A DNA stretch of 64,000 nucleotides, taken from a virus. Lineage: Duplodnaviria; Caudoviricetes. Location: positions 1 through 64,000 of the IMG/VR virus record IMGVR_UViG_2546826724_000006; one strand, written 5' to 3'. Below the pieces are notes generated by a model. It worked only from the letters and a program-made list of their open reading frames with translations. It made no database searches and was not told the origin of the DNA. Position 1 is the first letter of the stretch. Every line of letters starts with the position of its first letter. Below, in pieces: positions 25,579-52,962 of the stretch. The position numbers were made by a program, and so were the translations under genes.

Positions 25579-25857
25579 ATGGGCGACAATCTCACTCGCC
25601 CCGGTCCTGGTCGCCCTAAGGGCTCAGTCAACAAGACGACGGCGCTTCTCAAGGATGCGATCCTTAAGGCCGCCGAGCAGGCTGGAGGCGGCGGGGAAGA
25701 GGGGCTGGTCAACTACCTGACCGCGCAGGCCTCCGAGAGCCCCGCGGCTTTCATGTCGCTTCTCGGCAAAGTGCTTCCGATGCAAGTCACCGGAGAGGAC
25801 GGCGGCCCGGTCAGGGCGACTTTCTCGTTCAAGCTTGATCGGCCAGAGCAGTCGTGA
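25579..25857 (+). CDS. terS: Terminase small subunit (helper)
   Basis: GRPKGSVNKTT...QVTGEDGGPV; overlaps terL. Confidence 0.75.
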   Translation: MGDNLTRPGPGRPKGSVNKTTALLKDAILKAAEQAGGGGEEGLVNYLTAQASESPAAFMSLLGKVLPMQVTGEDGGPVRATFSFKLDRPEQS

Positions 25858-32600: not shown

Positions 32601-33026
32601 ATGAACCTTCAGGAAGCACGTACTCAGTTTCTCGCCGACAAGGACGCTCTCGCTGAGAAGGGCGTTCACCTCAACGGCGTCGTGATGTATGCGACGCCCG
32701 AGATGAAGCGGGACAGCACGCTCGCGATGGACGCTCAGCCGGTTCTTCAGACCGCGCCGAGCGGCGGCATCCCGGCGTTGCTCACCACGACGATCGACCC
32801 GGACGTGATCCGCGTTCGCTTCTCCCCGACCAAGGCCACCGAAATCTTCGGTGAGCAGCAGAAGGGCGATTGGCGGCAGGACACGATCGCGTTCGGCGTG
32901 GTCGAGCAGACCGGCGAGACGTCGGTGTACGGTGACTACGCCAACAACGGCTCCGTCAACGTCAACATGAACTGGCCGCAGCGTCAGCTCTTCCGCTACC
33001 AGACCATTTCACAGGTAGTTCACTAA
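32601..33026 (+). CDS. Major capsid protein (DUF2184-type), 5' part, interrupted by the integrated element
   Basis: LAMDAQP...KGDW...YGDYANNG...NWPQRQ...YQTIS, then an element-derived stop. Confidence 0.88.
   Translation: MNLQEARTQFLADKDALAEKGVHLNGVVMYATPEMKRDSTLAMDAQPVLQTAPSGGIPALLTTTIDPDVIRVRFSPTKATEIFGEQQKGDWRQDTIAFGVVEQTGETSVYGDYANNGSVNVNMNWPQRQLFRYQTISQVVH
32997..33010 (+). repeat. attL core TACCAGACCATTTC
   Basis: 13/14 identity with 51304-51317. Confidence 0.9.
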
Positions 33027-33050
33027 TAATCCCTTTCGTATCAATACCTT

Positions 33051-33080
33051 AGGGCGCCTCTCATGGCGCCCTTTCCTTTG
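33051..33080 (+). terminator. Intrinsic terminator just inside attL
   Basis: AGGGCGCC-tctcat-GGCGCCCT followed by TTCCTTTG. Confidence 0.6.
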
Positions 33081-33196
33081 TCTACTGATTACCACCAGCA
33101 CATTATATATCAATGGGTTACAGCCGTTGACGGCTGCTACACATGCCATGACGCGCGCCATGGCCGCGCCACCGCAATCGCATCTCAGAGACTGCT

Positions 33197-33409
33197 ATGG
33201 ATCAGCTTCATGGTCGTGACGAAGGCGAGGTGCTGACCGGCGCCAAGGCCATCGCCAACAGGTTCGGGTTCACCCCTCGGCAGATCTACTATTGGGTAGG
33301 CCACGCTGGGTTCCCGGTTTTTCACATCGGAAAGATCATCTGTGCTCGGCCGGCCCACGTGCGTCGCTGGATCGCTGAGCAAGAGGCGGCAGCACGAAAG
33401 GCTGGCTGA
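33197..33409 (+). CDS. Excisionase/AlpA-like HTH protein (satellite)
   Basis: LTGAKAIANRFGFTPRQIYYW....FPVFHIGKIICAR; first gene inside attL. Confidence 0.75.
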   Translation: MDQLHGRDEGEVLTGAKAIANRFGFTPRQIYYWVGHAGFPVFHIGKIICARPAHVRRWIAEQEAAARKAG

Positions 33410-33410
33410 C

Positions 33411-33665
33411 ATGGCTTATCGGGAACGGCGTGAAGTCACGCACCATGAGGCTATGCGCCTCGGAGAGAATGCAGAGGTGCGGGTAGACGTTGAGACGGAG
33501 AGCACCTTCGACTTGGTGATTTTCCGGATTTGGTCCCTCGACCATCATCTCGGTTGGCTTCCGACGAGCAACACCATCCGCCTCAAGGCCGCGCAGTTGC
33601 CCGACTTCGTGCGGCTCGGCCTGCGGGCGCACCAATCCATCCAAGCCCGGAAGCCCCGGCCATGA
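33411..33665 (+). CDS. Putative PC4-like ssDNA-binding protein
   Basis: VRVDV...LVIFRIW....GWLPTSNTIRLKAAQLPDF pattern. Confidence 0.45.
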   Translation: MAYRERREVTHHEAMRLGENAEVRVDVETESTFDLVIFRIWSLDHHLGWLPTSNTIRLKAAQLPDFVRLGLRAHQSIQARKPRP

Positions 33666-34135
33666 GCGTGCGCTACACTCTAGGCGTGGACATCGGCGCG
33701 AGCGGCGCCCTGGCCTTCTACGCCGCCGCTGAGCCCGCCATCGTCACGGTAGACGACATGCCGATGGTCGCCGGCCGGGTGGACCCGCACGCGCTCGCCC
33801 GCCGGATCCGGCAGATGGCCCCTGCCTTCGCCGTCGTGGAGCAGCAGGGACCGCGCCCGACCGATGGGTGCAAGCAGTCCTTCGGGATCGGACACGCCTA
33901 TGCGGTGGTGACGACGGCGCTGGCCCTCTGCGACGTGCCAGTGCATCTCGTCACCTCTGGCACGTGGAAGAAGCATCACAAGATCTTCGGCGCGTCCGAT
34001 CCAAAGGAAGCGGGTCGCGCCCTGGCCCTCCGTCTCTGGCCGCAGTGCGCCGAGACCTTCGCGTTGAAGAAGCACGACGGCCGATCCGACGCGGCCCTTA
34101 TCGCCCGCTTCGGGGCTGAGACGATCCAACTCTGA
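33662..34135 (+). CDS. RuvC-like Holliday junction resolvase
   Basis: LGVDIGASGALA, AVVEQ, WKK, HDGRSDAALIA. Confidence 0.85.
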   Translation: MSVRYTLGVDIGASGALAFYAAAEPAIVTVDDMPMVAGRVDPHALARRIRQMAPAFAVVEQQGPRPTDGCKQSFGIGHAYAVVTTALALCDVPVHLVTSGTWKKHHKIFGASDPKEAGRALALRLWPQCAETFALKKHDGRSDAALIARFGAETIQL

Positions 34136-34244
34136 AATCTGAGATCGAGGCGGAAGGTCCCGTCTCGTTGCGAGCGCGCTGGGTGGTGATGAGGACCGCC
34201 GCCCGGCGCGCGAGCGCATGTCCGCAAACCTACGGAGACATCAC

Positions 34245-34694
34245 ATGGCACGACGCCAGACACGAGTGACGATCAAGGCTGAGCCGACGTTGGACGAAGA
34301 CGGCAGGGTGATCGCGCCGGCCCAGCCCGGCCGAGACGAGGGCAAGACCTACGTGTTGACGGAGATGTCCGCCAAGCAGGCCGAGAGCTGGGGTGGCCGG
34401 GCGTTGACGGCGCTCACGCACTCCGGGGCCGAGCTGCCGGACGAGATCATGACGGCAGGCATGGCAGGGTTCGCCATGATGGGGATGCAGGCCCTAGCGG
34501 GGATCAAGTTTGAGGAAATCGAGCCGCTGATGAACGAAATGTTCGAGTGCGTGCGGATCGCCCCCGACCCGAAGAACCCTGACTTGGTGCGTGACCTCGT
34601 TGAGGATGACATCGAGGAAGTCTGGACGCGCGTTAAGCTGCGGATCGCCGTGCTTGACCTTCACGTCCGCCCTTCCACGCCCGTCGCCCCCTAG
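34245..34694 (+). CDS. Satellite tail assembly chaperone; probable -1 frameshift extension to 34903
   Basis: Clear paralog of helper 60536-61021 (RDEGKTYVLTEMSA vs RDAGKTFLLTEMSA; LVEDDIEEV in both). Confidence 0.88.
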   Translation: MARRQTRVTIKAEPTLDEDGRVIAPAQPGRDEGKTYVLTEMSAKQAESWGGRALTALTHSGAELPDEIMTAGMAGFAMMGMQALAGIKFEEIEPLMNEMFECVRIAPDPKNPDLVRDLVEDDIEEVWTRVKLRIAVLDLHVRPSTPVAP

Positions 34695-34917
34695 ACATCG
34701 GTTCGGTTGGGGACGACGGGTTGCCGGCACGATGGCGGGAGTTTGAGAACGTCTCTCGCTCTATCGCCATCGTCATGACCGAGAAGTTCGCGACCATGGG
34801 CGAGCTGGATACCATCTACGGCTCGCAGGACTTGGCCGATATGGTCGAGATCATCAGCATCAACGCGCACAACGCGCGGCTGCTACAGCCCAAACCGCGC
34901 TAGCTACAGGCCCCCAC

Positions 34918-35382
34918 ATGTTCGTGGACTTCACCCATGCCGGGCGCGCTGCGCTCGACAATGCGATCCCTCATGCGTCGGCGCACCTCGTGCCGATGCT
35001 GAAGGCCGTTCGGGATCACGGGATGGCGTTCGTCATCGCCGCGCAGTCTCGGCGCGGGTTTGCGATCCCGGAGACCGGCCCGGCCGTCGTCATCATCGGC
35101 GACGACATGGCCCGGTCCCTTGGACCGCCTGGCTTCCACCTCAAATCCGTTCGGCGGCTTCTCGGCCGGGCGAAGGTCGTCGCCGTGATGGCGGGCGCCC
35201 CGGTGGAGACGATGTACGCCCGCATGACGCGTGACGCGGTGGAGCGCCGCGCCATCGTCGTGCTGATCGAGACCACGACCGCCCATGAGGAGGAGTGGAG
35301 CGCCTACGCGGAGGACGTGAACCCCGACGCCGACCTTCACCTTGTGTCGCCGACCGTGGCGAATTTGGGGGCGCCGGCATGA
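34918..35382 (+). CDS. Hypothetical protein
   Basis: IIGDD....GPPGF; VLIETT...EEEW. Confidence 0.6.
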   Translation: MFVDFTHAGRAALDNAIPHASAHLVPMLKAVRDHGMAFVIAAQSRRGFAIPETGPAVVIIGDDMARSLGPPGFHLKSVRRLLGRAKVVAVMAGAPVETMYARMTRDAVERRAIVVLIETTTAHEEEWSAYAEDVNPDADLHLVSPTVANLGAPA

Positions 35383-35639
35383 AGGATACCGCCCCCTTCG
35401 GCACCGTCGAGACCGCGTGCGACTTCCTCGCCGAGATGGCGGCCGGCGTGATCGCGCACGCCTCCGTCATGCAGAGCTACGCTGAGGCCCGGTACTATCC
35501 CGGCTTGGACTACGCCACTCGGCACACCGTCGCGTTCCTGCGCGCGATGGAAGCCGCGCACGCCGAGGTGGAGCGCTCGCGCGCCGTCGTGGCCTACCGC
35601 AAAGGCGCCGAGGCTATCGGGCCGGGGCAGGGTGTCTGA
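35379..35639 (+). CDS. Hypothetical protein
   Basis: Coupled to the rep gene (TGATG). Confidence 0.5.
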   Translation: MKDTAPFGTVETACDFLAEMAAGVIAHASVMQSYAEARYYPGLDYATRHTVAFLRAMEAAHAEVERSRAVVAYRKGAEAIGPGQGV

Positions 35640-36889
35640 TGCGGGAGCGCCTAGACGATCTGCCGCCGCTCGGCGAGCCGGACGAAGACGGCCGGTGGAT
35701 CCCGCCTGAGGAAGAGGCCCCGCGCGCCACGCCTTTGCTGCGAGCCACGCCCTACGTCTACCGCCCGCCGGCCGAGATCCCGATCCGGGAGTGGGTGTAC
35801 GGCAAGCATCTGATCCGCAGGTTCTTGAGCACCACCGTGGCCCCCGGCGCTGTCGGGAAGTCGAGCCTCGTTCTGGTCGAGGCCATCGCCATGGTGACGG
35901 GCCGCCCCTTGCTCGGGATCCAAGTCCCGCATCGGCTCCGGGTTTGGGTCGCGAACCTTGAGGACCCGCTTGAGGAGCTAGAGCGCCGCGTCGCTGCGAT
36001 CTGTCTCCACTACGGCATTGACCCGCGCGAGTTGGAAGGACGCCTGTTCCTCGACAGCGGGCGCACGGCCGAGATCATCATCGCCCGCCGCGAGCGCGAC
36101 GGCGTGAAGGTGGCAGAGCCCCTTATCGCTGCCATCGTGCAGACACTGCGGGAAAACCGGATCGATCACCTGACGGTCGACCCGTTCGTCTCGTCTCACC
36201 GCGTGACGGAGAACGCCAACGATGAGATCGACATCGTGGCGAAGGCTTGGAACCGCGTCGCCGAGACGGCCGGCGTGTCGATCGAACTCGTCCACCACGT
36301 CCGCAAAGGGCAGGGCGGGGCAGGGGAGTTCACGGTAGAGGACGGCCGCGGTGCCGGTGCCCTACTCGCCGCCGCTCGCTCGGCCCGCGTGCTCAACCCC
36401 ATGACCAAGGACGAGGCCGCCAGGGCCGGGTTGCCGTCGCATCGGGGCTACTTCCGGACGGACAACGGCAAGGCCAATCTCGCGCCGCCGCCCGACCGCT
36501 CGGAATGGTTTCATCTCACCTCCGTCTCACTCGGCAACGGGCCGGCTGGGCTCGTGGATGCCAGCGACCACGTAGCCGTCGTGGAACCCTGGACATGGCC
36601 GGATGCCTTCGACGGGATCAGCCTCAACGATCTGATGACGGCTCAAACCGCCGTAGCCGAGGGCGGTCCGTGGCGTGCCAGCCCGCAGTCGCCGGCATGG
36701 GTCGGCAGGCCGATAGCCCGCGCCTTGAGGATGGACCCCGACGATAAGGGAGACCGCCAGCGCGTCAGCCGCTTGCTCAAGACGTGGATGGAGACCGGCA
36801 TGTTCGTGACGGTCGAAGCACAGGACGAGGCCCGTAAAGTCCGGCAGTTCGTGGAGGTAGGAACCCGCGCCAGTGCGACACCGGACTGA
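35639..36889 (+). CDS. RepA-like AAA (SF4-type) helicase / replication protein
   Basis: APGAVGKSS Walker A, NLED, TVDPF, LVHHVRKG, DGRGAGAL, GKANLAP. Confidence 0.85.
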   Translation: MRERLDDLPPLGEPDEDGRWIPPEEEAPRATPLLRATPYVYRPPAEIPIREWVYGKHLIRRFLSTTVAPGAVGKSSLVLVEAIAMVTGRPLLGIQVPHRLRVWVANLEDPLEELERRVAAICLHYGIDPRELEGRLFLDSGRTAEIIIARRERDGVKVAEPLIAAIVQTLRENRIDHLTVDPFVSSHRVTENANDEIDIVAKAWNRVAETAGVSIELVHHVRKGQGGAGEFTVEDGRGAGALLAAARSARVLNPMTKDEAARAGLPSHRGYFRTDNGKANLAPPPDRSEWFHLTSVSLGNGPAGLVDASDHVAVVEPWTWPDAFDGISLNDLMTAQTAVAEGGPWRASPQSPAWVGRPIARALRMDPDDKGDRQRVSRLLKTWMETGMFVTVEAQDEARKVRQFVEVGTRASATPD

Positions 36890-36899
36890 GGGGCCGGAT

Positions 36900-37080
36900 C
36901 TGCTCCACCACCACTACTCCCCCCTATAAGGGGGTGGAGCAAGTGGCGCAGTGGCGCAAAGATCCTCAAGCGCTCCACTGCACCACCTTGCGACGCTCCA
37001 CCATTCTCAGGTGGCGCAAGTCTCTGATCCGCCGGTATGGCGCTACCACATAGGGCAAACGGCGAGGCTTTGGCGCATAG
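36900..37080. repeat. Putative satellite origin with short iterons
   Basis: Clustered TGG(C/A)GC copies in both orientations just downstream of rep. Confidence 0.45.
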
Positions 37081-37255
37081 GTTCCGGCTATGGATCTGAG
37101 TGCGGACGATAGACAGCGGCACACAGGGGGACGTGTCGTCTGAAGGGGATTGGGGGACGTGTGGTCACGCGGACGCCGCCTCTGGATTTTTCCCGGCCGT
37201 TGGCGAAGCCAAACGCGGTCACGCGGGAACCCACGCTTGACATCGCCGTGGCGCT

Positions 37256-37295
37256 CTTTACAACTTGCTCAACGAACGTAGAGCATTTCGTAAAG
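37256..37295. promoter_or_regulatory. Imperfect palindrome; candidate res/operator site of the serine recombinase
   Basis: CTTTACaactTGCTCaACG-aa-CGTaGAGCAtttcGTAAAG directly upstream of the gene. Confidence 0.55.
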
Positions 37296-37303
37296 GCACA
37301 GCG

Positions 37304-37978
37304 ATGGCGACCGGATCCTTCGTCACCTACGCGCGAGTTTCGACGGCGAAGCAGGGCCGCTCCGGTCTCGGCCTCGACGCTCAGCGCGCCGCTGTCACGG
37401 CCTATCTGAACGGCGGCAAGTGGAGCGTCGTCGGCGAGTTCGTGGAGATCGAGAGCGGCAAGCGCGCCGACCGTCCCGAACTGGCGAAGGCCATCGCCGC
37501 TTGCCGGCTGTACGGCGCCAAGCTCGTTGTTGCGAAGCTCGACCGGCTCAGCCGCGATCCCGGCTTCCTGCGGGACCTTGAGCGCAGCGGTATCGACTTC
37601 GTTGCGGCCGACATGCCCGACGCCAACCGGCTGACGGTAGGCGTGATGGCCCTTGTCGCCGAGCAAGAGCGGGAAGCCATCTCGGCCCGCACCAAGGCTG
37701 CCCTACAGGCTGCCAAGGCCCGCGGGACCAAGCTCGGGGGCTTCCGGGGCTACACCCTCACCGAAGCCGACCACGCCGCCGCCAAGGCTGGCAGGGAGGC
37801 TCGCACACAGGTCCAGGCCGACCGCATCGGGGCGACCGTGGCCGAGATCAGGGCCGCCGGCATCACGTCGGCCAATGGCATCGCCAAGGCTCTCAACGAA
37901 CGCGGCATCCCGACTGCTAAGGGCGGTCAGTGGCAGGCCGTACAGGTCCAGCGGGTGCTGTCCCGCCTGGAAGCATAG
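37304..37978 (+). CDS. Serine recombinase (resolvase family)
   Basis: YARVST..Q, ESGK...RPEL, AKLDRLSR, EREAISARTK. Confidence 0.92.
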   Translation: MATGSFVTYARVSTAKQGRSGLGLDAQRAAVTAYLNGGKWSVVGEFVEIESGKRADRPELAKAIAACRLYGAKLVVAKLDRLSRDPGFLRDLERSGIDFVAADMPDANRLTVGVMALVAEQEREAISARTKAALQAAKARGTKLGGFRGYTLTEADHAAAKAGREARTQVQADRIGATVAEIRAAGITSANGIAKALNERGIPTAKGGQWQAVQVQRVLSRLEA

Positions 37979-38018
37979 GGGCATCCATTCCGGGTGCCTC
38001 GACACAGAGGACACCCAC

Positions 38019-38264
38019 ATGGCTCCCACCACCAACTACCAGAACACCATCGGCACGTCGGGCACCTACACGGTCGCCGTCACGCAGCGCGCGGGCACCA
38101 TCAACGAGGAACAACACCTCGGCTACGTCTACGCCGTCACCATCACGTCGGGCGGCGCCACCACCGAAGTCATCACCGTGCCGGCCCTGCCCGAGGGCTG
38201 CGTCCGCGCCAACACCGCTGGCCTCGCTGTCCTGCGCGCCCTCAAGACCGTGCAGGGGAGCTGA
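38019..38264 (+). CDS. Hypothetical protein
   Basis: GAGGA RBS; beta-rich, 81 aa. Confidence 0.55.
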   Translation: MAPTTNYQNTIGTSGTYTVAVTQRAGTINEEQHLGYVYAVTITSGGATTEVITVPALPEGCVRANTAGLAVLRALKTVQGS

Positions 38265-38269
38265 GCGCC

Positions 38270-38554
38270 GTGGGCGCCGTCGTCAGTCTCCACCCTGTCG
38301 TGACGGTCTCGGAGCGGTTCACCCACCTTGAGACCTATGACCGGCTCGGCAGGCACGAACTGATCCTCGCCCGGTCCGAGATCGGCGGCGGCCCCGCACT
38401 GTCGGTGCTGCTACTCCTGAACGAGCCGGACGGCGACGGGTTTGAGATCCTGTCATCCGTCCGCGAGCAACCCGGCGTGCGCGAGGCGCTAGCCATCGTG
38501 GCGCGGGCCGTCTCGCTCGCTGCGCTCCACCTGTTGCCGGACGATCCGCTGTAG
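38270..38554 (+). CDS. Hypothetical protein
   Basis: GTG start just after the previous stop. Confidence 0.4.
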   Translation: MGAVVSLHPVVTVSERFTHLETYDRLGRHELILARSEIGGGPALSVLLLLNEPDGDGFEILSSVREQPGVREALAIVARAVSLAALHLLPDDPL

Positions 38555-38691
38555 CCGGCGAGCCTCGTCAGCATAGCCTCAGATTTGGCCGCTGACGGCC
38601 GCTGACGCTCGACCGCTGTCCTGTAGCCAAAATCCGCCCACGCCAGTCCTGAGCCATCCTAGGCGCAGGGATCGGCATTCTGCGAGCCATC

Positions 38692-39063
38692 ATGCCCAAA
38701 GCACGCGCGGCCGTCTCGCGGTCGGCCATGACGAACGGCCGCCGCCTTCACCTGATCCGCCCGTCCGGTTGGACTGCCGAGGGGCGGCGCTTTCAAGACC
38801 TCGTTGAGGCCCTGACGGAGGAACGCGGCGGCGCTGCGGCCCTCGATGTCGCCCGGCAGGAAGCGATCCGCATGTACGCGCTGCTCAGCGTCGAGCGGAG
38901 CCGGATTGAGGTGGACATGGCCTCCGGCAGGCCCGTGGACGCGGAGCACTACGGGCGACTGTGCGACCGCGCCGACCGTCAGTATCGCCGCATGGGGCCG
39001 CCCCTGCCGCGCACCAAGCAATCGCTTAGGGATCAACTATTGCAAAGAGCAGGTAAGGCATGA
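38692..39063 (+). CDS. terS: Satellite terminase small subunit
   Basis: Helical 123-aa protein coupled (ATGA) to the second terL. Confidence 0.65.
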   Translation: MPKARAAVSRSAMTNGRRLHLIRPSGWTAEGRRFQDLVEALTEERGGAAALDVARQEAIRMYALLSVERSRIEVDMASGRPVDAEHYGRLCDRADRQYRRMGPPLPRTKQSLRDQLLQRAGKA

Positions 39064-40595
39064 AAATCATATGCTCCATGCGAGAAGCATTGGAAGATGA
39101 TAGACTACTTGGCACTGTTCTTCCAGGGGAAAGCTGGCGGAACTGGCGTATTCTTCTGATCGCCAGCCGGGGCGAGCCGCTGACGGCAGAGGAACGGGAG
39201 GTGTTCACCCGCCTGACGACCCGCGAGCGCGAGCCGGAGGAAGCGTGCGACGAAGTTTGGTCCGTAGTCGGGCGCGGTGGCGGCAAGTCGGCGGCCATGA
39301 GCGCGGCGGCTGCGTACTATGCCGGGTGCGTGGACCATACCGGCAAGTTCAAGCCGGGGCAGCGACTGCGCATTCCGGTGATGGCGACGGCGAAAGAGAC
39401 GGCGGCCGAGTGCCTGAACTACCTCAAGGGCATCTTTACCGAGATCGAGTTCTTCGCCGAGCTTGTCGAGTATGAGATGAACGGCCGGAAGCGGAGTGAG
39501 CCCCGCATCACGGAAAGCAAGATCAGCCTCGTCAACTCGGTGGACATCCTCGTCACGGCGGCCAACTTCAAGACGGTGCGCGGCGCGACGCTGATCGCCG
39601 CCTTGTTCGATGAGCTGGCCTTCTGGGCGCTGGACGGGCAGGCCAATCCGGATCGAGAGATCGCCCGCGCGACACGCCCCGGTCTCGGCCGCTACGGCGA
39701 CGGCGTGTTGCTCGTCATGTCCAGCCCCTACGCCAAGAAGGGGCTCTTATTCGAGACGTACAAGAAGCATTTCCGGCCGGACGGCGATCCGCGCGTGCTC
39801 GTCGTCCAGGCGCCGACGCTGGAGATGAACAACAACCCGGATCTGCGCCGGAAGATTGAGCGCGAATATGCCGACGATCCCGAGTCGGCGCGGGCCGAGT
39901 ACGGCGCGGAGTTCCGGGAAGGCGTCTCGGACTTCGTGAGCCGTGAAGTCGTGGATCAGTGTACGGACTTCGGTGTCCGTCAGCGAGAACCTGACCCGAA
40001 CGTCCAGTACACGGCCTTTATCGATCCATCCGGCGGCACCGGCAAGGACAGCATGACGCTTGCTGTTGCGCATCGGGAGAAGGACGGCTCCGTTATTTTG
40101 GACCTCGTTGACGGAGTGAAGCCGCCGTACTCCCCCGATGCCGTCTGCCAGCAGTTCGCCGCGACGCTCAAGCCGTTCCGGATCTACGAAGTCACGGGCG
40201 ACAACTTCGCAGCCGAGTGGCCCAAAGAGCTAATCCGCAAGTACGGCATCACCTACGTTCAGTGTCCGAAACCGAAGGCGGCGCTGTACTCCGAGTTTTT
40301 GCCGGCCCTGAACAGCGGCAAGGTGCGCTTGCTCGAACACGACAAGATGCGCAACGAATTGCTGAACCTTGAGCGCCGGACCAATTTCGGCGGAAAAGAC
40401 AGCATTGACCATCCGGCAAACGGTCACGACGATTACATTAATGCCGTTGCCGGTGTAGTATGGGCGGAGAGCAATGCATCCAAGCCCATCGTCATCTCGC
40501 CAGAGCTTCGAGAACTGGCGAAGACGCCGAACAGACGCACGCAGAGAGACGCCTTCAACTTCGTCATGGGCTACGGCCCCGGCCGACGCTTCTAA
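39060..40595 (+). CDS. terL: Satellite terminase large subunit
   Basis: VGRGGGKS, LFDELAF, MSSPY, FIDPSGG, HDDYINAVAG. Confidence 0.9.
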   Translation: MKIICSMREALEDDRLLGTVLPGESWRNWRILLIASRGEPLTAEEREVFTRLTTREREPEEACDEVWSVVGRGGGKSAAMSAAAAYYAGCVDHTGKFKPGQRLRIPVMATAKETAAECLNYLKGIFTEIEFFAELVEYEMNGRKRSEPRITESKISLVNSVDILVTAANFKTVRGATLIAALFDELAFWALDGQANPDREIARATRPGLGRYGDGVLLVMSSPYAKKGLLFETYKKHFRPDGDPRVLVVQAPTLEMNNNPDLRRKIEREYADDPESARAEYGAEFREGVSDFVSREVVDQCTDFGVRQREPDPNVQYTAFIDPSGGTGKDSMTLAVAHREKDGSVILDLVDGVKPPYSPDAVCQQFAATLKPFRIYEVTGDNFAAEWPKELIRKYGITYVQCPKPKAALYSEFLPALNSGKVRLLEHDKMRNELLNLERRTNFGGKDSIDHPANGHDDYINAVAGVVWAESNASKPIVISPELRELAKTPNRRTQRDAFNFVMGYGPGRRF

Positions 40596-40607
40596 AGGAG
40601 ACGCACA

Positions 40608-41087
40608 ATGGCTTTGATGAAACGCACCCGCGCTACCGCGCTAGACCGCGACCCCCTGGACCGCGATAAGCTCGACAACTTGATGCTGTTCCTGAAGGAC
40701 CGGCTCAGCCCCGACGACTTCGCTAAGTTCACCGACCTGATTGACGATCTGCAGGACGATGCAGAGGCTGCGAACCCCTCTCGTGAGATGGCGACGGACG
40801 CCCTGCCGGCTTCGATCCGCCGCGCGGTCCGCCGCGAGATGCGGAGTGCCCGCCTCCGCCTCTCGGGCGGCTCGTCCCTCGCGCAGGACGCGGCGCGCAT
40901 CAGCTCGTTCGAAGAGCGCTATCCGGGCGCCGCGAGGATTAAGGGCGACCCGATGCCGGGCGCTATGTACACGGCCCGCCGACCGGATCCGGTTCTGTCG
41001 CAGCCTGAGGCCCGCGCAGCGAGGGAAGCGAGCGCGGCTCGCATCTCTGCAATGATGGGCGGCCGCATCATCAAGGACGCTGAGTGA
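40608..41087 (+). CDS. Satellite scaffold-like protein
   Basis: AxD motifs; LSPDD and SFEERYPGAARI match helper scaffold LSPED and SFDERFGTSRI. Confidence 0.65.
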   Translation: MALMKRTRATALDRDPLDRDKLDNLMLFLKDRLSPDDFAKFTDLIDDLQDDAEAANPSREMATDALPASIRRAVRREMRSARLRLSGGSSLAQDAARISSFEERYPGAARIKGDPMPGAMYTARRPDPVLSQPEARAAREASAARISAMMGGRIIKDAE

Positions 41088-41857
41088 TGGTCGGGCCCCG
41101 CCGGCAGGAAGCCGTCATCTCGGCTTCCGAGCCTTCGCTTCGTTCTCCGGAGCGCCAAGCCCTCGCCGAAGCCATCGCCAAGGCTGAGGAGCACAACAAG
41201 GGTCTCGCCGCGTGCCGCGCCGCGATCCAGGCCGCCGAGGGGATGGAGGCGACCGCGGAGGCCGCCCTCCGAGATGCCCAAGCCGAAGTCGAACAGGCTA
41301 AAGCAAGCCGTGCCGCTGAGATCACGGCTGCGGCTGCGGCCGGGCAGTCCGTCCCGTCGAGCGATCGTCAGCGTCTTGCCCGCCAGCGCGAAGTGGAGGC
41401 GCAGGACGAACTAGAGGCCGTGCGATCCTCGCTTGAGGCCGTGCGGGCGCCGCTAAGTGACTGGGAATACTGGGCGCAAAATTGCGCTGAGAAGGTCCGC
41501 AAGGCTGCGGCCGATGTTGCTACTGCTCAGGTCCCGGAAGCGATTGCGGTAGCGCTCAGGGCGATCAAGAACGCCGAGGTTTGCGTCCGCTCGGCCTATG
41601 CGGCGCATAGCGCGGTAACCGATGTCGCGGGCGGCCAGGATCAGGCCATGTCGGCGCGCATCAACGCTCTGCTCAACTTCGTGCCGGGCACCTGGGACTA
41701 TCGCAATCCCAGCCGCGGGGACGGTCCCGAGTGGAACAGGGCTGTCGCAGCCTTGCTGACGGATCCCGACGCGCCCCTGCCGGCCGTGCGCGAGGTAGCG
41801 GACATGGTTCCCGGCGAGCCCGGTCCCGGCATCACCGGCCCGCGGCGCGTCGCCTGA
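41084..41857 (+). CDS. Coiled-coil hypothetical protein
   Basis: Ala/Glu-rich helices; C-terminal W...L.TDPDAPLP. Confidence 0.65.
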   Translation: MMVGPRRQEAVISASEPSLRSPERQALAEAIAKAEEHNKGLAACRAAIQAAEGMEATAEAALRDAQAEVEQAKASRAAEITAAAAAGQSVPSSDRQRLARQREVEAQDELEAVRSSLEAVRAPLSDWEYWAQNCAEKVRKAAADVATAQVPEAIAVALRAIKNAEVCVRSAYAAHSAVTDVAGGQDQAMSARINALLNFVPGTWDYRNPSRGDGPEWNRAVAALLTDPDAPLPAVREVADMVPGEPGPGITGPRRVA

Positions 41858-42078
41858 TCCCGCGCGATCACCGGCCCCTCTGAAGCAGCGGGCGCCGGCC
41901 GCGCGGCTAGTGCGGGGGCTTCTCGGCTTCACCCCGCATGGCGCCAAGCCAGTGAGTGGCGTTCCTCAAGTAACCGCTAGCAGGCGGGGCCGGGCTCATC
42001 CGGTTCGGCGACCCGCTCAAGATCGCCCTCGGCGCAGACCTCCCGCTGTGCCGGGGGCACTTCCTATCGGAGATCCAC

Positions 42079-42768
42079 ATGAGCAGCGGCGCAGGCAATT
42101 CGGGGAACGACGCCCCGGTCGGGCAGATGACTGTCCGCGATCCCAATTCGGAAGTGAACCGCGACTTTTTCCAGTCTCGCCAGCAATTCGGCGAGCGCCG
42201 GTTTCACTTCATGGCGAAGATCGTCAAGGTCAAGAATAAGAATAGCTTAACTCAACCTTGCACCGTCGATATTCAGCCGATCGTGAAGCAACTGGATGGG
42301 AGCGGCAAGGCTACCTCTCACGGGATCATCTACAACGTCCCCGTTCCGAGAAACCAGTCCGGCGATAGTGTGATCGTCAATGACCCAAGTGTCGGAGATG
42401 TAGGCAATTTCTCGATTTTGGACCGTGATCACAAATCAGCCCAAGCCAACGATTGGGCCGAAAGCAATCCTGGCAGCCAGCGCCGCAACAGCATGTCCGA
42501 TGCGGTGTTCCACGGCACGCTTCCGCGCAAGGCGCAGGAAGTGAAGCAGTACGTCCGCATGGACGAGAACGGCGTCGATATCCGGCAGCGTGACGGACAC
42601 ACCTTCGCGATGACCAAGGACGGCTTCAATCTCAACGGCGTGAAGATCGACAAGGACGGCAACTTCACTGCTCCGGGCAAGGTGGTGGCAGGGCAGGGGA
42701 CCGCCGATGAAGTCTCCCTGCAAAGCCATCTGCACGGCAGCGGGCCGGCGCCGACGCCAGGGAGCTAA
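42079..42768 (+). CDS. Baseplate central spike (Gp138/GpV-like), satellite
   Basis: TVDIQPIV, PSVGDVG, RRNSMSDA; C-terminal SLQSHLH metal-binding tip. Confidence 0.85.
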   Translation: MSSGAGNSGNDAPVGQMTVRDPNSEVNRDFFQSRQQFGERRFHFMAKIVKVKNKNSLTQPCTVDIQPIVKQLDGSGKATSHGIIYNVPVPRNQSGDSVIVNDPSVGDVGNFSILDRDHKSAQANDWAESNPGSQRRNSMSDAVFHGTLPRKAQEVKQYVRMDENGVDIRQRDGHTFAMTKDGFNLNGVKIDKDGNFTAPGKVVAGQGTADEVSLQSHLHGSGPAPTPGS

Positions 42769-42771
42769 AGC

Positions 42772-43623
42772 ATGGCCTTCGCCGCGAAGTTCATCAACGT
42801 CACCATAGAGCTGCAAAATCCTGGCTCGCAAGGCGGGGTCAACAAAGCGACCATCAAGAACCATCGTGTCGCCGTTGCCGTCGAACAGAACGGCAGTCCG
42901 GACATGGGCAAGGCCACGTGCAGTATCTATGGCCTTAGCCTCTCGCTAATGAACCAATTAACGCAGCTTCCATTCATGGCAGAGGCTGTCGGCAACAACA
43001 AAATCATGATTGAGGCCGGCGAGGGCAACGGCGTCCCGAAAAAGGTCTACTCGGGGACGATCTTCGCGGCGTTCGCCGACATTCGCGCTCCTATTGGCGC
43101 CTTGCGGGTGGATGCGCTCGGCGGATACTACAATGCCGTCGCTCCGGCGACGCCGACAAGCAAAGAGGGGGACGCGGATGTCGCAACCCTCCTCGGCCAG
43201 ATCGCCAAGCAAGGGCAACTCACCCTCGAAAATAACAACGTGTCGTGCGTCGTGAGAGATCCTTATTTGCCAGGCTCTAATCGCCAGCAAATCAAGCATC
43301 TCGCCGAGTCGGCCGGCATCAATTGGCTAATTGAAGACGATAAGCTCGCGATTTGGCCGAAGAACGGTAGCCGGAATGGCGACGCCGTGAAGGTAAGCAA
43401 GCTGACCGGTATGGTTGGCTATCCGCGCTACACGGCTAGCGGGATTGAAGTCGTCGCGACGTGGAACCCGAACCTGCGATATGGCGGAAGTATTCAGGTC
43501 GAAAGCGAATTAACCCCGGCCTGCGGTACGTGGTACATCGTGAACATTGCGCATGAACTTGAAAGTGAGACGCCGAATGGAAGGTGGTTCACGATCCTTA
43601 CCTGCACGAGATTGAAGACTTAG
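42772..43623 (+). CDS. Baseplate hub protein, satellite
   Basis: IYGLSLSLMNQL, IEAG, TGMVGYP, NPNL..GG.I.VES, HELESETPNGRWFT. Confidence 0.82.
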   Translation: MAFAAKFINVTIELQNPGSQGGVNKATIKNHRVAVAVEQNGSPDMGKATCSIYGLSLSLMNQLTQLPFMAEAVGNNKIMIEAGEGNGVPKKVYSGTIFAAFADIRAPIGALRVDALGGYYNAVAPATPTSKEGDADVATLLGQIAKQGQLTLENNNVSCVVRDPYLPGSNRQQIKHLAESAGINWLIEDDKLAIWPKNGSRNGDAVKVSKLTGMVGYPRYTASGIEVVATWNPNLRYGGSIQVESELTPACGTWYIVNIAHELESETPNGRWFTILTCTRLKT

Positions 43624-43632
43624 AGGTACAAG

Positions 43633-45872
43633 ATGGCTACGGTTCTGGATACTCTTGTCGTACAACTTGGCCTCGACCCTAAGGCTTTCGTCAAGGGTAC
43701 ACAGCAGACCACGGGTGCGCTCGCCAAGACCCGTGAGGGGGCGCTCAAGGAAGGCAAGCAGATCGAGCGCTCGCTGGACAACGCCAGCGAGTCCGTCGAG
43801 CGCCTTGCCCGCAACGCCTTGAAACTGGCAGCGATTTTCACCGGCGGGCGAGCCCTCGGAACATTCATAACCGATATCGGCCGGGCGGACGCCGCTATGG
43901 GCCGGATGGCTGACCGCCTGGGCGTAGCGCCCGAACGGGTCGCGGCCTTCGACAACGCCATCAAGCGGATGGGAGGCTCGGCCGGCGAGGGCGCCGCCGC
44001 CTTCCAGCGCATGTCGGATACCGTCAACGAATTGCGATCGACAGGAAATTCCTCGGCCCTGCCGGCGCTCGCCAAGCTACAGGCCATGTCCGGCCAGCAA
44101 ATCCGGTTGAACGGCGAGACGGAGGAGTCGCTAGGCGACCTCGCCGAAGCCGCCAAGCGGGCCTCTGAGCGCGTCGGCGCCGCGCGGGCCAGCTTTGAGC
44201 TTCGGAGCGCCGGCTATAGCGATGCCGCGATCAATCAGCTTCTCAAGGGCCGTGCCGAGCTACAGAAGGCCCTGGCGCAGTCACAGCGATCCGGCCTCGT
44301 GTCGAAGGCCGACGCCGACGCCGCCCGCGCGCCCTCGGGGCTCAGTATGAGGATCTGTCCGACAAGGTGGCGGACTTCGGCCGGCGGATCAGCACGGCGC
44401 TGACGCCGATCCTCACCGACCTGATGAAGCGGTTCGGCGACTGGATCGACAAGAACAAAGAATGGCTCGCGCAGGACATTGCGACGGAGGTCGGCAAGTT
44501 CGCGACCGAGCTGCGCAAGATCCCCTGGGATGACGTAGCCAAGGGGATCAAGGAGTTCGTCAAGGGCGCGAACGACGGCGCGCAGGCGGTCGGCGGCTGG
44601 ACCCGTGTCGCGGAGATTTTCTTCGGGCTCTGGATCGGCAGTAAGGTGGTGGGGGTTCTCGCCAGCATCGCCGCGATCCGGAACGCCCTCGTCATCGGCG
44701 ACACGTCGTTGCTCGCGGCCATGGCGCGCGTCGGCATTCCGGTCGCAATCGGCGCCGTCGCGATGGGCCACGGTTTCCAGACGCCAGAACAGGCCGCGAA
44801 AGACCCGGATCAGGCTCTGCTTCAGCGCGAGGGTATCGACCGCCGGGCGCGGGTGCGCGGGTGGCTCGGAGACAGGTACGATGACGTGCGGCGGTTTGGG
44901 CGCCGTCTACTCGGCGGCGGTAGCGCGGAGGCCGGCGAGGACGACCGTCACTCCGATGGCATTCGTCGGCGCGGTCGCCGGGCAGCTCAGAATTATGATG
45001 GGAGCGGTGCGACGCCTCCCCGGGGTGATGGTAGCGGCAATGCCCGTGCGGCTCGCACTGCTGACATGATGCGGTATGCGATGGATCAGCTAAAGCGCGA
45101 GGGTGTGCCGGAAGCGCATCTGCGGCAGTCGGCGGCGCACCTCGTCGGACAAGCGACGATGGAGTCGGGACTAGACCCGAACAAGACCCATGATCCCGAT
45201 GCCAGTGGCCGTCCGACCGGCTATGGCATCTATGGCGCGCGACTGGTTCGGCGCGACCGGATGCTGCGCTGGCTGGAAAAGAACGGCTACGCGAAGAACT
45301 CTGCGGAAGGCCAGATGCGGTACATGTCGCATGAAGCCATGAACGATAAGACCTACGCAAGAACCCGCAGCATTCTGATGGGGGGCGGATCCGGTAATAT
45401 CGACGCGGACACCGACACCATCACGAAAAACTTTGAGAGCCCGAAGTTCGTCAACCGTCGTTCCGGTGCCGTTCGGAATGCCCTGCGGACTGGGGCCTCG
45501 CCAGAGCCGCAGCGCGAGAAGGACATTAAGACGATCCAAGACACGGTTTCCGGCGCCCGCAAGCCTGAAGTTCTGGCGGATCCCAAGGACGAACGCCGCA
45601 AGCCGATGGCCTCGCTATTCTACGGCGACACCCCGCCTGGCGTGCAGGCGGGTGCGCGATCCGCAGTCGCGCAACAGCAGAGTGCCCTGGCGGATCGAGC
45701 TGCCGTCACTCAGAACGACAACCGGAGCACAAGCACCTCCACGCAGGAAGCTCACTTCCACGGCGACATGGTGTTTCAGAACGCCGGGGACAGTCGCGAG
45801 ATCGCCAGCAACCTGCGGGCGCGCTTGAAGGAGCCGCAGTTCGTCTCGGCGGCAAATACCGGACAGGCGTAG
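43633..45872 (+). pseudogene. Satellite tape measure protein with tail-lysozyme domain, frameshifted at ~44326-44332
   Basis: Both ORF halves align with helper TMP 61162-63588; removing one GC from CGCGCGC gives a 745-aa ORF. Confidence 0.85.
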
Positions 45873-45876
45873 GCGA

Positions 45877-46182
45877 CTAGCGGGCTCCGAACGTGTCGGG
45901 GAAGCTTTTAAGCACTCTAGCGCAGAGGGCTTTGCGGCCTTCCTCGGCCTCGCGGGCGTCAAAGACCTTGATCCCCGCAGATAGCCCAGCCTCAAGGCTC
46001 GCTTTGGTCATCTGAGTGGCACACTCTCGGGCTTGCTGAATGTAGGCTTCGGGGTAGTGCTCGAACCCGCACTGGAACTGAGCGCGGCTGAGGAAGCCAT
46101 GCGTCTTAAGAAATTTCGGGCAGTCGGCGGCCTGCGCCGAGACGGACGTGGCGATGATCGCGGCGGCGAGGGTGTAGCGCAT
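45877..46182 (-). CDS. Secreted/periplasmic protein convergent on the satellite TMP gene
   Basis: Signal peptide MRYTLAAAIIATSVSAQA; four Cys. Confidence 0.7.
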   Translation of the reverse strand: MRYTLAAAIIATSVSAQAADCPKFLKTHGFLSRAQFQCGFEHYPEAYIQQARECATQMTKASLEAGLSAGIKVFDAREAEEGRKALCARVLKSFPDTFGAR

Positions 46183-46417
46183 CCGGGCAACATATACCCC
46201 CGGTTGAGACTGTCGAGATGACGCGCAGCACGAAACCCCCTGCGCCTTGCCGGGCGAGGGGTGTTCGTGTCATGCTGTGGATGGAGCTTCGCAACTCCCG
46301 AGATGGACCCTTGCCGGGGTTGGCATCTCAGTCCGTGAAAGGCGTGCGCTACGGCTTGCCGGCCGAAGTGTCGCCTCTAAAAACCGCGCTCACACCGTGA
46401 GCCGCGACCGGCTCACT

Positions 46418-46504
46418 ATGCCGGGAGTGCCACGGTTATACAAGAGCCTTCGGGTGAAGGCCGTGGCGCACGTTCTCACGGGCGTGTTGCGAAGCTCCTG
46501 GCGC
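46418..46504 (+). ncRNA. C4/CI-like antisense RNA
   Basis: Cloverleaf-like stems; unpaired TCAC and TTGCGAA complementary to flanking CCGTGA and TTCGCAA sites. Confidence 0.7.
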
Positions 46505-46578
46505 CAGCGCCGACCGCTGGCATGGGTGGACCCCTTCGCAAGGGAAAGCCCCCGGCCTTCGCAAGCCGGTTCTAGACC

Positions 46579-47253
46579 GTGAGCAACGAACTTATGTCAT
46601 TCCACGACCACCGCACGCCGCGCATCGCGGCTGTGCTTCCGACTGCCAAGCGGCAGTACGGACCCGTCACGCTCGCCATCCGAGCGATGCGCGCCGCCTA
46701 CGGCATCAATGCCAAGGCCCCGGCCCGTCGAGCCGGCCCCGTCACCGAAGCCATCCGCACCATGCGGGCCGCCGTGCCGGACTTCGATGCCAACCCCGAC
46801 CTCATTGCCCTGCGCCGGGCGCTCGCTAATCGGATCGAGACGGACATTGCCGCGCTCGACATGCTGGGCGGGGATCCGGACCTTGAGTCGGATTTTGTCA
46901 TGGAGGAGTGCGCCGCCAACGGCACGCTCTACCTGCGCGGCAGATCCTCGGACGACGAGCCGAGCTTGTGCGGCGCAGGTACTCACGAAGGCGGCGTGCT
47001 CGGCGGTCTGACGCCATCGCAGGGCGGTGACGACCGTGAGGACGAGAACGAGCACGGCGGCGACGTTCAGGACGAACCGCACGATCCCGAGGAGGACGGC
47101 GACGTTCATGAGATCGGCACGGCGGTCGCGGGTTTCGACGGGACCAACTATCTGCGCACAAGCCTGAACCGTCGCGTCAGCGTCATTCCGCGCGGCGTCG
47201 TGATCGTTGGACCGGACGGCGCGGGTTACACCGTGTCGCGGGTGGCGCGATGA
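46579..47253 (+). CDS. Hypothetical protein (immunity operon)
   Basis: IAALDMLGGDPDLE followed by an acidic tract. Confidence 0.6.
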   Translation: MSNELMSFHDHRTPRIAAVLPTAKRQYGPVTLAIRAMRAAYGINAKAPARRAGPVTEAIRTMRAAVPDFDANPDLIALRRALANRIETDIAALDMLGGDPDLESDFVMEECAANGTLYLRGRSSDDEPSLCGAGTHEGGVLGGLTPSQGGDDREDENEHGGDVQDEPHDPEEDGDVHEIGTAVAGFDGTNYLRTSLNRRVSVIPRGVVIVGPDGAGYTVSRVAR

Positions 47254-47765
47254 CCGCCTCCACCCGTCGCGCCGCGCTCGGCGCCATCCTCGCGGCTCCG
47301 CTGGCATCCGTGCCCGCCGTCGCCGCTCCCGAACGAGCGGACTATCGCGCTCGGCTACTCGCCGCCTATGCGGACGACAGAGCTTGCCGTCCGATCAACT
47401 GCGTCGCTGAGATGGGCTCTTTTGAGGATGAGGTTTGCGATCACATCCTTTTGCACTCATGGGCCGTGCAGACGGAGGTAGCGACACTGCCGCCGCCAGC
47501 CACTCTCGAGGGATTGGCGCTCGCCGCGATAGCGACGGCGCTCGCTTGGGAAGGGGAGGATCCGAAGTCTGAGTCGAAGGACGCCTGCGCCATCGGTTTG
47601 ATCCGTGCCGTTCTGGCGTTCACTGGCGCCACCATGCCGGCAGGCTTCATCGGCTTTGCTGATGAGCCGGATCACATGGCGCGCGACAAAGCCGTTCATG
47701 ATGAACGGCCTGGACGCCTCGCGGCGTGGGCGGTTGCGAAAGCGCAGGTGCAGTCATGCGCCTGA
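47250..47765 (+). CDS. Hypothetical protein
   Basis: TRRAALG N-terminus; PATLEGL motif. Confidence 0.6.
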   Translation: MTASTRRAALGAILAAPLASVPAVAAPERADYRARLLAAYADDRACRPINCVAEMGSFEDEVCDHILLHSWAVQTEVATLPPPATLEGLALAAIATALAWEGEDPKSESKDACAIGLIRAVLAFTGATMPAGFIGFADEPDHMARDKAVHDERPGRLAAWAVAKAQVQSCA

Positions 47766-48064
47766 TCTATTCCTTCCTCGCCGTCTGGCAGATCCGGCTT
47801 GCCCGGTTCGACATCGCCCGATCCGAACGCCTTACCGACGATGCGCAGGAAGCCTTCGCCAAGGCCGGCGAGCGAGCACGTCTCGCAGACCGTCTCATGG
47901 TTCGGGCGGGCCTGCCCGTCATCTTCGGACGCTGATACCCGGCCCGGCCGCTCGCGCGGTCGGAATTGTCGCCAAGTTGGCGGCATATGCCCCGAGCCCG
48001 GCCGGGCCTCACGACAGCCCTCGGCGCAATTCCGTGCCGGGGGCATCTTCGTGAGGATGCCACC

Positions 48065-48835
48065 ATGACACAGACCATGCCGGTCCTGGCGGTCCACGAC
48101 GGACGCCCGATGGCCGATAGCCGCGACGTAGCAGCTACGTTCGGGAAAGAGCACAAGCACGTGTTGGAAGCCTATCGGAACTGCCATTGCAGCGCCGGCT
48201 TCCGGGAGACGAATTTTCGACCGTTCAAAATCAAGGACTTAACCGGCGAGAGCACCAGCCACGTCCTGATGACGAAGAATGGCTTTGCCTTCCTCGTGCT
48301 CGGCTTCACGGGCGCAGCGGCGGCGGTGTTCAAGGAGGCATACGTTGAGCGCTTCGACGCGATGGAAGCGGAGCTGCGTCGCCAGTCTGGTCCGGTTGTG
48401 CCTCAGAGCCTGCCAGAAGCTCTCAGGCTGGCGGCGGACCTCGCTGAGCAGGTAGCCACGCAAAAGGCCGAGATCGCCGTCCTGGCGCCCCGTAGCGAGG
48501 CCCTGGCGGTCATCTCTGACGCGGACGGCTCGCTGTGCGTGACCGACGCTGCAAAGGCCCTACAGATGCCGCCGGGCGAGCTGTGGGCCTACCTGCTCAG
48601 CGCGCAGTGGATCTACCGCCGGGAGAAGGACGGGCACCCCGTCGCCTACCAGTCCAAGCTGACGGCCGGCTACCTTGAGCACAAGGTGGTCCCGATCCCG
48701 ACCGCCCCCGGTAAGACCTGGGCTCGGCAACAGGTCCGCATCACGCCGAAGGGCCTAACCGCCCTCGCGCAGCGGATCCCCCTCGACCGGCCGGGCGGAT
48801 TGTTCGGCCGCCTCGCCGCGCCCGCCAGCGCCTAA
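48065..48835 (+). CDS. Rha-family regulator fused to an antirepressor (ANT/KilAC) domain
   Basis: DSRDVAATFGKEHKHVL, MTKNGFAFLVLGFTG, PQSLPEALRLAADLAE, QVRITPKG. Confidence 0.88.
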   Translation: MTQTMPVLAVHDGRPMADSRDVAATFGKEHKHVLEAYRNCHCSAGFRETNFRPFKIKDLTGESTSHVLMTKNGFAFLVLGFTGAAAAVFKEAYVERFDAMEAELRRQSGPVVPQSLPEALRLAADLAEQVATQKAEIAVLAPRSEALAVISDADGSLCVTDAAKALQMPPGELWAYLLSAQWIYRREKDGHPVAYQSKLTAGYLEHKVVPIPTAPGKTWARQQVRITPKGLTALAQRIPLDRPGGLFGRLAAPASA

Positions 48836-48885
48836 CCGCAACAGCCCGGCCGTGGCTGGCGGCCGGGCGCACTAGGAGATCAGAC

Positions 48886-50022: not shown

Positions 50023-50023
50023 G

Positions 50024-51238: not shown

Positions 51239-51303
51239 GCGCGCCATGAGCGCGCCATGGCAAAAAATGCCACGCTAAATCAGAGGGTTAGTGGGTGTAA
51301 ATT

Positions 51304-51317
51304 TACCAGACCATCTC
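51304..51317 (+). repeat. attR core TACCAGACCATCTC
   Basis: Direct repeat of 32997-33010. Confidence 0.9.
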
Positions 51318-51999: not shown

Positions 52000-52000
52000 T

Positions 52001-52498: not shown

Positions 52499-52518
52499 CA
52501 GCCCGACAGGAGAGCGTC

Positions 52519-52950: not shown

Positions 52951-52962
52951 GGGAGCGACGCC

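Follow-up and report, generated by a model that had tools for sequence, protein, structure and literature searches.

Known satellites and the embedded element

Classical phage-inducible chromosomal islands (PICIs), Staphylococcus aureus pathogenicity islands (SaPIs) and PICI-like elements (PLEs) redirect packaging by means of a small terminase (TerS), Ppi/Rpp or packaging inhibitors, and use the large terminase (TerL) of their helper. The protein set of the capsid-forming PICIs reportedly includes a portal and a TerL. These islands are described as encoding all the proteins for capsid production and packaging, and as taking only tails from the helper (10.1101/2022.09.08.507074); the statement in the first-pass annotation of the present DNA that typical PICIs act through TerS or Ppi only is therefore a fair one that requires this exception. 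Helper-embedded PICIs (HE-PICIs) have been described in enterobacterial lambdoid prophages (Tommasini, Mageeney and Williams 2023, PMC10111431).

The present analysis concerns an 18.3 kb element in the provirus record IMGVR_UViG_2546826724_000006, which has 87,028 bp; the window, that is, the whole stretch of DNA that was analysed, is its first 64 kb (64,000 nucleotides). The provirus is a complete myovirus-like temperate Methylobacterium prophage, here called the helper, and the element is embedded in its major capsid gene. With a probability of about 0.55, the open reading frame (ORF) at 39060-40595 is the working TerL of this satellite, and docks by means of a helper-like tail. The following features define the insertion, including the attachment (att) core at both ends:

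33008..51314, + strand, helper-embedded element of 18.3 kb; all main genes on the + strand; splits the capsid gene
32661..33026, + strand, N-terminal piece of the helper major capsid gene (phrog_264 profile positions 11-110)
51301..51999, + strand, C-terminal piece of the helper major capsid gene (phrog_264 profile positions 107-321)
32997..33007, + strand, left copy of the 11-bp att core TACCAGACCAT, within the capsid codons for YQTIS
51304..51314, + strand, right copy of the 11-bp att core TACCAGACCAT, direct repeat of the left copy

The element is HE-PICI-like in that it lies inside a late gene of a prophage, is flanked by att repeats, and leaves a gene that is split and restorable. Contigs from the runs of two other organisms (X2 and X3) run across both of these capsid-gene junctions and into a related element, which indicates that the embedded arrangement is not a one-off. 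Among the contig matches listed, in which 22 joints are not displayed, none has an empty capsid site, and none of the listed records that contain the stretch is registered as RNA. The likeness to HE-PICIs extends to the targets, since capsid and portal genes are among those of HE-PICIs and the capsid gene is hit here and a portal gene in a second genome described below, and to the short block of att identity, 10 bp in HE-PICIs and 11 bp here (PMC10111431). In HE-PICIs, too, the interrupted gene is blocked until excision and helper late genes have been captured (PMC10111431). In contrast to them, the present element has an alphaproteobacterial host and a myovirus-like helper, its integrases are at the right end, and no AlpA-like match was seen in general scans of its ORFs. 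It also has a TerS-like gene and a TerL of its own, whereas the text of PMC10111431 contains 'terminase' twice and 'TerL' never.

With the capsid-forming PICIs the element shares the fact that the satellite brings its own packaging machinery, beyond redirecting that of the helper. It differs from them in having some tail genes and neither a capsid nor a portal gene: among its 22 called ORFs there is no portal or capsid family match, and the unexplained ORFs have at most 257 amino acids. Consequently, the satellite DNA could be packaged only into helper procapsids, and its TerL must act on a portal that is not its own. Integrase, replication and packaging modules and the dependence on helper virions recall classical PICIs, SaPIs and PLEs, from which the satellite family described here differs by encoding its own TerL. 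The psu, sid and delta genes of P4-like satellites were not recognised in the element. A literature search, in which supplements were not covered, found no description of a satellite TerL with a helper-matched tail. Helper-embedded satellites are thus known, and the comparison with the literature suggests that an own TerL with a helper-matched tail is a new variation.

The satellite terminase and its C-terminal tail

The packaging genes of the two partners are the following:

39060..40595, + strand, satellite TerL, 511 aa (phrog_2 E 9.1e-21, invariant motifs, AlphaFold2 model, HK97 TerL fold match)
40476..40595, + strand, satellite TerL tail, residues ~473-511, the portion resembling helper TerL
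25854..27101, + strand, helper prophage TerL, 415 aa, Mu gp28 / Terminase_6 type (phrog_2 E 2.4e-27; tail PLTIDPELRRLAKMPRRGGFTF)
27104..28735, + strand, helper portal, Phage_portal_3 / phrog_146 (PF06381 E 1.3e-78, phrog_146 E 4.5e-101)
38692..39063, + strand, TerS-like ORF, 123 aa; stop overlaps the TerL start; conserved 5' of TerL in relatives

Family profile, invariant motifs and predicted fold identify the ORF at 39060-40595 as a large terminase. It is composed of an ASCE ATPase domain with the Walker A motif GRGGGKS (residues 71-77, starting at nt 39270), an RNase H-like nuclease domain and a C-terminal tail, with DPSGG starting at nt 40023 and PIVISPELRELAKTPNRR..FNF at nt 40485. Across 33 satellite TerL relatives, the Walker A residues G71, R72, G75 and K76, the Walker B pair D184 E185 and the acidic nuclease residues D322 (in DPSGG), D381 and D458 (in HDD) are all invariant. 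The AlphaFold2 model built on the alignment of these relatives has a mean predicted local distance difference test score (pLDDT) of 86.9. Using this model, Foldseek retrieved HK97 TerL (6z6d, E 1.8e-18) as the best PDB match, followed by Sf6 gp2, T4 gp17 and D6E TerL; the nuclease domains of G20c and P74-26 TerL have target-normalised template modelling (TM) scores of 0.73-0.79 against it. The Pfam search gave no match, nor did a PDB sequence search with a profile of the 33 relatives.

The helper TerL matches Terminase_6N/6C just below the Pfam cut-offs, and its corresponding motifs are STKCGKT (nt 25941), DLAKS (nt 26583) and PLTIDPELRRLAKMPRRGGFTF (nt 27021). All the motifs quoted in the first-pass annotation, which had pointed to divergent catalytic motifs with matching ends, are in place. 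BLASTP aligns the two enzymes in a single significant segment, residues 430-504 of the satellite protein with 345-414 of the helper protein (28/75 identical, 37%; E 9e-9), which contains the last nuclease motif (HDD) and everything C-terminal to it; the second-best segment has an E of 0.56. The TerL ends are therefore alignable and the bodies are not, and the body of the satellite enzyme comes from a lineage of terminases beyond alignment with helper TerL by BLASTP.

In the model, the last nuclease helix (residues 458-472) is followed by a coil (473-480), a short helix (481-488, ELRELAKT) and a disordered basic/aromatic end (489-511). A short helix and a disordered end beyond the last nuclease helix place the tail outside the catalytic fold, as an appendage predicted to be a flexible extension.

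On sequence comparison, the last ~35 residues of the satellite enzyme specifically resemble the tail of the co-resident helper. When the satellite tail was compared with 120 helper-family tails, the co-resident helper came first with a score of 68, the runner-up having 47. Conversely, when the helper tail was compared with 239 satellite-family tails, the co-resident satellite ranked second, behind a protein with the same tail (P0024). The pair is the 5th of 22,967 cross-family tail pairs. Relatives of the helper TerL itself that are 87% and 84% identical bear different tails. A word-index search with residues 466-511 of the satellite TerL matched only the query protein.

Recent gene conversion of the tail was considered and rejected. 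The DNA under the tail core is identical at 30 of 51 nt (59%) between satellite and helper, and the third codon base is common to six of the 11 identical tail residues. Synonymous divergence with the residues kept speaks for a likeness maintained in the protein and against a patch of fresh recombination.

The tail sets comprised 120 satellite-family proteins, 120 helper-family proteins, 76 genome loci and 50 viral loci. A strict regular expression was used to search them for a loose tail pattern, defined as a short hydrophobic strand followed by S/T/D and an amphipathic helix, which was found in 10/120 satellite-family and 33/120 helper-family tails, 7/76 genome loci and 2/50 viral loci. The specific motif PELRxLAK is present in only 2/120, 1/120, 0/76 and 0/50, respectively. 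The idea that the tail motif is generic among TerLs, which the first-pass annotation had named as a threat to its proposal, was rejected, because the specific motif is rare although the loose pattern is common.

The TerS-like ORF was matched by tblastn in 19 of 80 genome loci, and an alignment of 13 sequences was built. Its model has four helices with a pLDDT of 81. Pfam and PHROG searches gave no match and Foldseek found no fold match in the PDB at E <= 0.001, so this ORF matches neither a family nor a fold of small terminases; it is a candidate TerS by position, size, conservation and helical model. The complete private packaging motor proposed at first is accordingly supported for TerL, whereas its small-terminase part is a conserved helical ORF without a family or fold match. 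No similarity was found to the helper ORF at 25579-25857, the helper TerS candidate. Because the two candidates are unrelated, a partner common to both TerLs is more likely to be a part of the helper virion than a TerS.

Satellite family, co-resident pairs and portals

Relatives of the satellite TerL number more than 2,616 and are found foremost in Methylobacterium and Methylorubrum, then in other Alphaproteobacteria and beyond, and at least 537 genome stretches encode one. A portal or capsid gene follows TerL in none of nine genome loci and in none of the six closer viral loci (42-47% identity). Small ORFs are found downstream instead, and beyond them a neck protein, baseplate hub, tape measure or head protease. 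Upstream, the relatives have an AAA_25 or primase gene, the TerS-like ORF (19/80 loci) and often a serine recombinase (11/80). Each of the 21 loci whose upstream side was examined has an integrase gene 4-9 kb upstream of TerL; that of L069 is in two pieces, and that of L011 is a weak match. In several of these 21 loci the integrase is beside ordinary chromosomal genes such as those of ABC transporters, and these loci look like PICI-like islands in the chromosome. The distant members of the family (at most 41% identity) are the TerL of complete phages and adjoin a portal; such portals include the helper type phrog_146, 40-49% identical to that of the helper (L135, L098, L104/L106 and L116-L123).

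The tails past the last nuclease helix vary extremely across the 120, 76 and 50 members. The 83% and 72% relatives of the satellite TerL bear other tails, while P0024, whose body is 50% identical, has nearly the same tail (score 121). In a metagenome scan a 2.9 kb relative with the P0024 tail type was matched; the 23.9 kb contig of P0024 itself was not among the matches. Whole tail types are common to both TerL families, and tail motifs of other phages' TerL recur near-verbatim on satellite-family TerLs of other genomes, namely STMDLL and GAGLMDLY followed by G/D and D. Tails in this family thus look swapped between enzyme bodies. The first-pass annotation had called the satellite tail grafted, which we infer rather than observe, and which fits this swapping. 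A very different, domain-sized C-terminal extension of ~90 residues is common to P0079, P0081 and P0086 of the satellite family and P0133 of the helper family (score 97), and is another tail exchange between unrelated terminase bodies.

Co-resident pairs were sought among 33 genomes with a satellite-type TerL. A helper-family TerL is present in one of them, G014, and a search of 401 genomes of G001's family again gave G014 alone. Its satellite and helper are ~200 kb apart, and their tails share a different motif, VT.AML.RFSQ; this tail pair ranks first of 239, and 29th of 22,967. A Phage_portal_3 portal was found in six of the 33 genomes. One of these, the Methylorubrum suomiense genome G002 (contig C13, ~110006-129508; loci L006, L213, L217 and L218), is by its gene arrangement a second helper-embedded case. 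Its portal gene is split at the codons RNYY into a piece at 110006-110896 (profile 2-298) and a piece at 129317-129508 (profile 292-355), and the insert of ~18.4 kb contains a satellite-type TerL and has a tyrosine integrase beside the right junction. The helper TerL of G002 ends in ..GGPSTMDLL. A scan with the integrase at 50024-51238 for further pairs found nothing, and a search for the L010 tail in five genomes returned satellite-type TerLs and one noise match only.

The helper portal gene starts immediately past the helper TerL stop, and its product is the proposed docking target. TerL's C-terminal tail binds the portal in lambda gpA, T3 gp19 and T4 gp17 according to multiple lines of evidence; in a competing view the ATPase domain makes the portal contact, and contacts between TerS and TerL are also discussed (PMC5389665). 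The satellite tail resembles those of lambda, T3 and T4 in being a short extension past the nuclease, held in those phages to dock the motor on the portal (PMC5389665). It differs in that the tails there serve the portal of their own phage, whereas here the tail copies the TerL of another element. In a tree of 12 portals, the six whose adjacent TerL has a tail like that of the present pair (A-like, as judged by eye; the strict pattern fits 3/6) form one clade with support of 98/98. This clade includes both TerL body families, and portals with other tail types are outside it. The satellite tail scores 66 against that of its own helper and 18-25 against the other five tails linked to the clade. 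Given the small sample and the related rows, the portal tree is a hint only. On the present analysis we consider it slightly better than an even chance that the tail of the satellite TerL docks a foreign motor on the helper portal.

Several observations weigh against this reading. The tail of P22 TerL is said to bind TerS, and the TerS of the satellite is a candidate only. The loose strand-S/T/D-helix pattern is common among helper-family tails, Phage_portal_3 portals also accompany other tail types, and tails within the portal clade are only modestly alike, with a mean score of 22.6 (n=14) against 14.8 (n=30) across. The tails of the helper-embedded pair in G002 match weakly (score 21, rank 35 of 239). 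In G003, G012 and G025 the tail of the resident Phage_portal_3 phage, a putative helper, is unlike that of the satellite (ranks 97, 205/209 and 41/178, respectively). A permutation over six genomes gave 28 of 720 arrangements with a sum at least as high as observed, and G000 and G014 carry the signal. Two TerL matches were found in five of 40 virus records; the three that were scored are unmatched (tail scores 11, 18 and 21), and G432 and G455 were left unscored because the open frame of the second match is unlike a TerL C-terminus. The covariation of tails across satellite-helper pairs, put forward in the first-pass annotation as a check, is partial: the present pair and G014 match, but G002 is weak and six other pairs are unmatched. 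Two pairs thus truly match in their tails, one pair that is certain does so weakly, and those with a merely putative helper do not.

The tail likeness could also be a non-adaptive by-product, either of an ancient, incomplete acquisition of helper late-gene DNA by an element that resides among those genes, or of chance within a common tail type. Capture of this kind would agree with the helper-type late genes of the element (tail assembly chaperone 58%, baseplate protein 64%, hub 45% and tape measure protein 50% identical) and with the late genes that helper-embedded PICIs are reported to capture (PMC10111431), and chance with the frequency of the loose pattern and the several unmatched co-resident pairs. 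However, the synonymous sites have diverged while the residues were retained, and the same tail is found on a body only 50% identical in P0024. Moreover, a second and different motif is matched in G014, where satellite and helper are far apart, and the two pairs rank 5 and 29 of 22,967. An origin as a by-product is thus unlikely.

Alternatively, the tail could bind a common partner other than the portal, and the likeness would then be due to that partner; a TerS, a protein of head completion or scaffolding, and a factor of the host are candidates. The ATPase-domain portal contact and the TerS-TerL contacts in the literature (PMC5389665) leave room for such a partner, as does the occurrence of Phage_portal_3 portals with several tail types. 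Against this reading stands the satellite's own conserved TerS-like gene, unrelated to the helper candidate. In addition, the satellite has no portal, so some part of its TerL must dock on that of the helper, and A-like tails track one portal clade across two TerL body families. We therefore regard a partner other than the portal as rather improbable, and docking of the satellite TerL on the helper portal by its tail is the reading followed below.

Gene content and proposed packaging route

The proposal that a satellite-like island carries its own TerL is borne out by the 18.3 kb element and its gene content. The other genes identified in it, and the integrase of the helper, are listed below:

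33530-34135, + strand, Holliday-junction resolvase
34218-34694, + strand, tail assembly chaperone, 58% identical to the helper copy
35639-36889, + strand, AAA_25 primase/helicase-like protein
37265-37978, + strand, small serine recombinase of the resolvase/invertase type, between the replication gene and the TerS-like ORF, a place where it recurs in 11/80 genome loci
40608-41087 and 41084-41857, + strand, two ORFs without assigned function after TerL
42079-42768, + strand, baseplate protein, 64% identical to the helper copy
42772-43623, + strand, baseplate hub, 45% identical to the helper copy
43633-45872, + strand, tape measure with lysozyme, N-terminal part 50% identical to the helper copy
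47966-48835, + strand, Rha/Ant
48886-50022 and 50024-51238, + strand, two tandem tyrosine integrases at the right end of the element
1-1107, - strand, helper integrase

The helper has genes for the integrase and for a CI-like repressor, followed by those for a helicase, replication and an antiterminator. The head module encodes TerL, portal, MuF, protease and a cement protein, and the tail module a neck protein, sheath, tube, chaperone, tape measure, baseplate and fibres, with the lysis genes after them. Three tandem phrog_2085 paralogues lie 3' of the helper capsid gene (51971-53391). A protein with DUF7666 and collagen repeats (phrog_4433, tail-fibre-like) is encoded at 13121-14161 on the - strand, beside the helper repressor and distant from the tail module.

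The tail-gene copies of the element (45-64% identity) are ordered differently from those of the helper and include neither a sheath nor a tube gene, and relatives of the element bear similar subsets. The tape-measure/lysozyme gene is present in the record as two overlapping ORFs. Contigs of runs X1, X2 and X3 are without 2 nt at 44326, which would restore a single frame, so the frameshift is probably an assembly error or a strain variant. Contigs of X2, X3 and X13 skip 48896-50125, and the related elements thus seem to have the second integrase only.

The ORF at 41084-41857, close 3' of TerL, encodes a conserved Ala-rich coiled-coil protein. Its language-model features gave a resemblance of 0.95 to clusters, one of which has Psu in 79% of its members. 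Assignment to Psu, the capsid decoration protein of P4, was rejected: Pfam gave no match at E <= 10 in any of six members, and a PDB profile search gave none. This protein may have a role in capsid assembly.

It is very improbable that the element is a decaying prophage fragment whose TerL is a relic packaging nothing, as the two frames of the tape-measure gene in the record, the two tandem integrases and the odd gene mix might suggest, because the catalytic motifs are all invariant and the TerL model is confident, the gene order recurs across genera with an integrase gene upstream in 21/21 loci (two in pieces or weak), the split in the capsid gene is clean, with att repeats that are intact, and contigs of three runs have the tape-measure gene in a single frame.

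If the satellite TerL docks by its helper-like tail, packaging could proceed as follows. After induction the element would excise, restoring the helper capsid gene, and the TerS-like protein and the satellite TerL would cut satellite concatemers. The helper-like tail would then dock the satellite motor on the helper portal, replacing or competing with the helper TerL. Because no size-redirecting gene was recognised in the element, heads of full size would presumably take up the 18.3 kb genomes as multimers. In the family as a whole, the tail may be a swappable module setting which helper's procapsids a satellite can use.

A broader proposal, which we hold more tentatively and at somewhat less than even odds, is that of a large alphaproteobacterial family of satellites without capsid or portal genes. 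These would have a foreign TerS-TerL motor with a helper-copied tail of ~35 residues as a swappable address label. Exchange of the tail would retarget the satellite to a new portal, where its motor would compete with that of the helper; some members would embed in a capsid or portal gene, so that head assembly awaits their excision.

Satellites known so far follow one of two routes, redirecting the helper terminase (TerS, Ppi, Rpp) or making capsids of their own. If the present reading is true, molecular piracy would have a third route, in which a satellite's own TerL is fitted to the helper portal by a copied tail. The satellite family concerned is widespread and outside the satellite classes described in the literature compared here. 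Such a route would also be a natural experiment on which part of TerL recognises the portal: with two unalignable TerL bodies that have matched tails, reshuffled among relatives, a short peptide becomes directly testable as the determinant of specificity.

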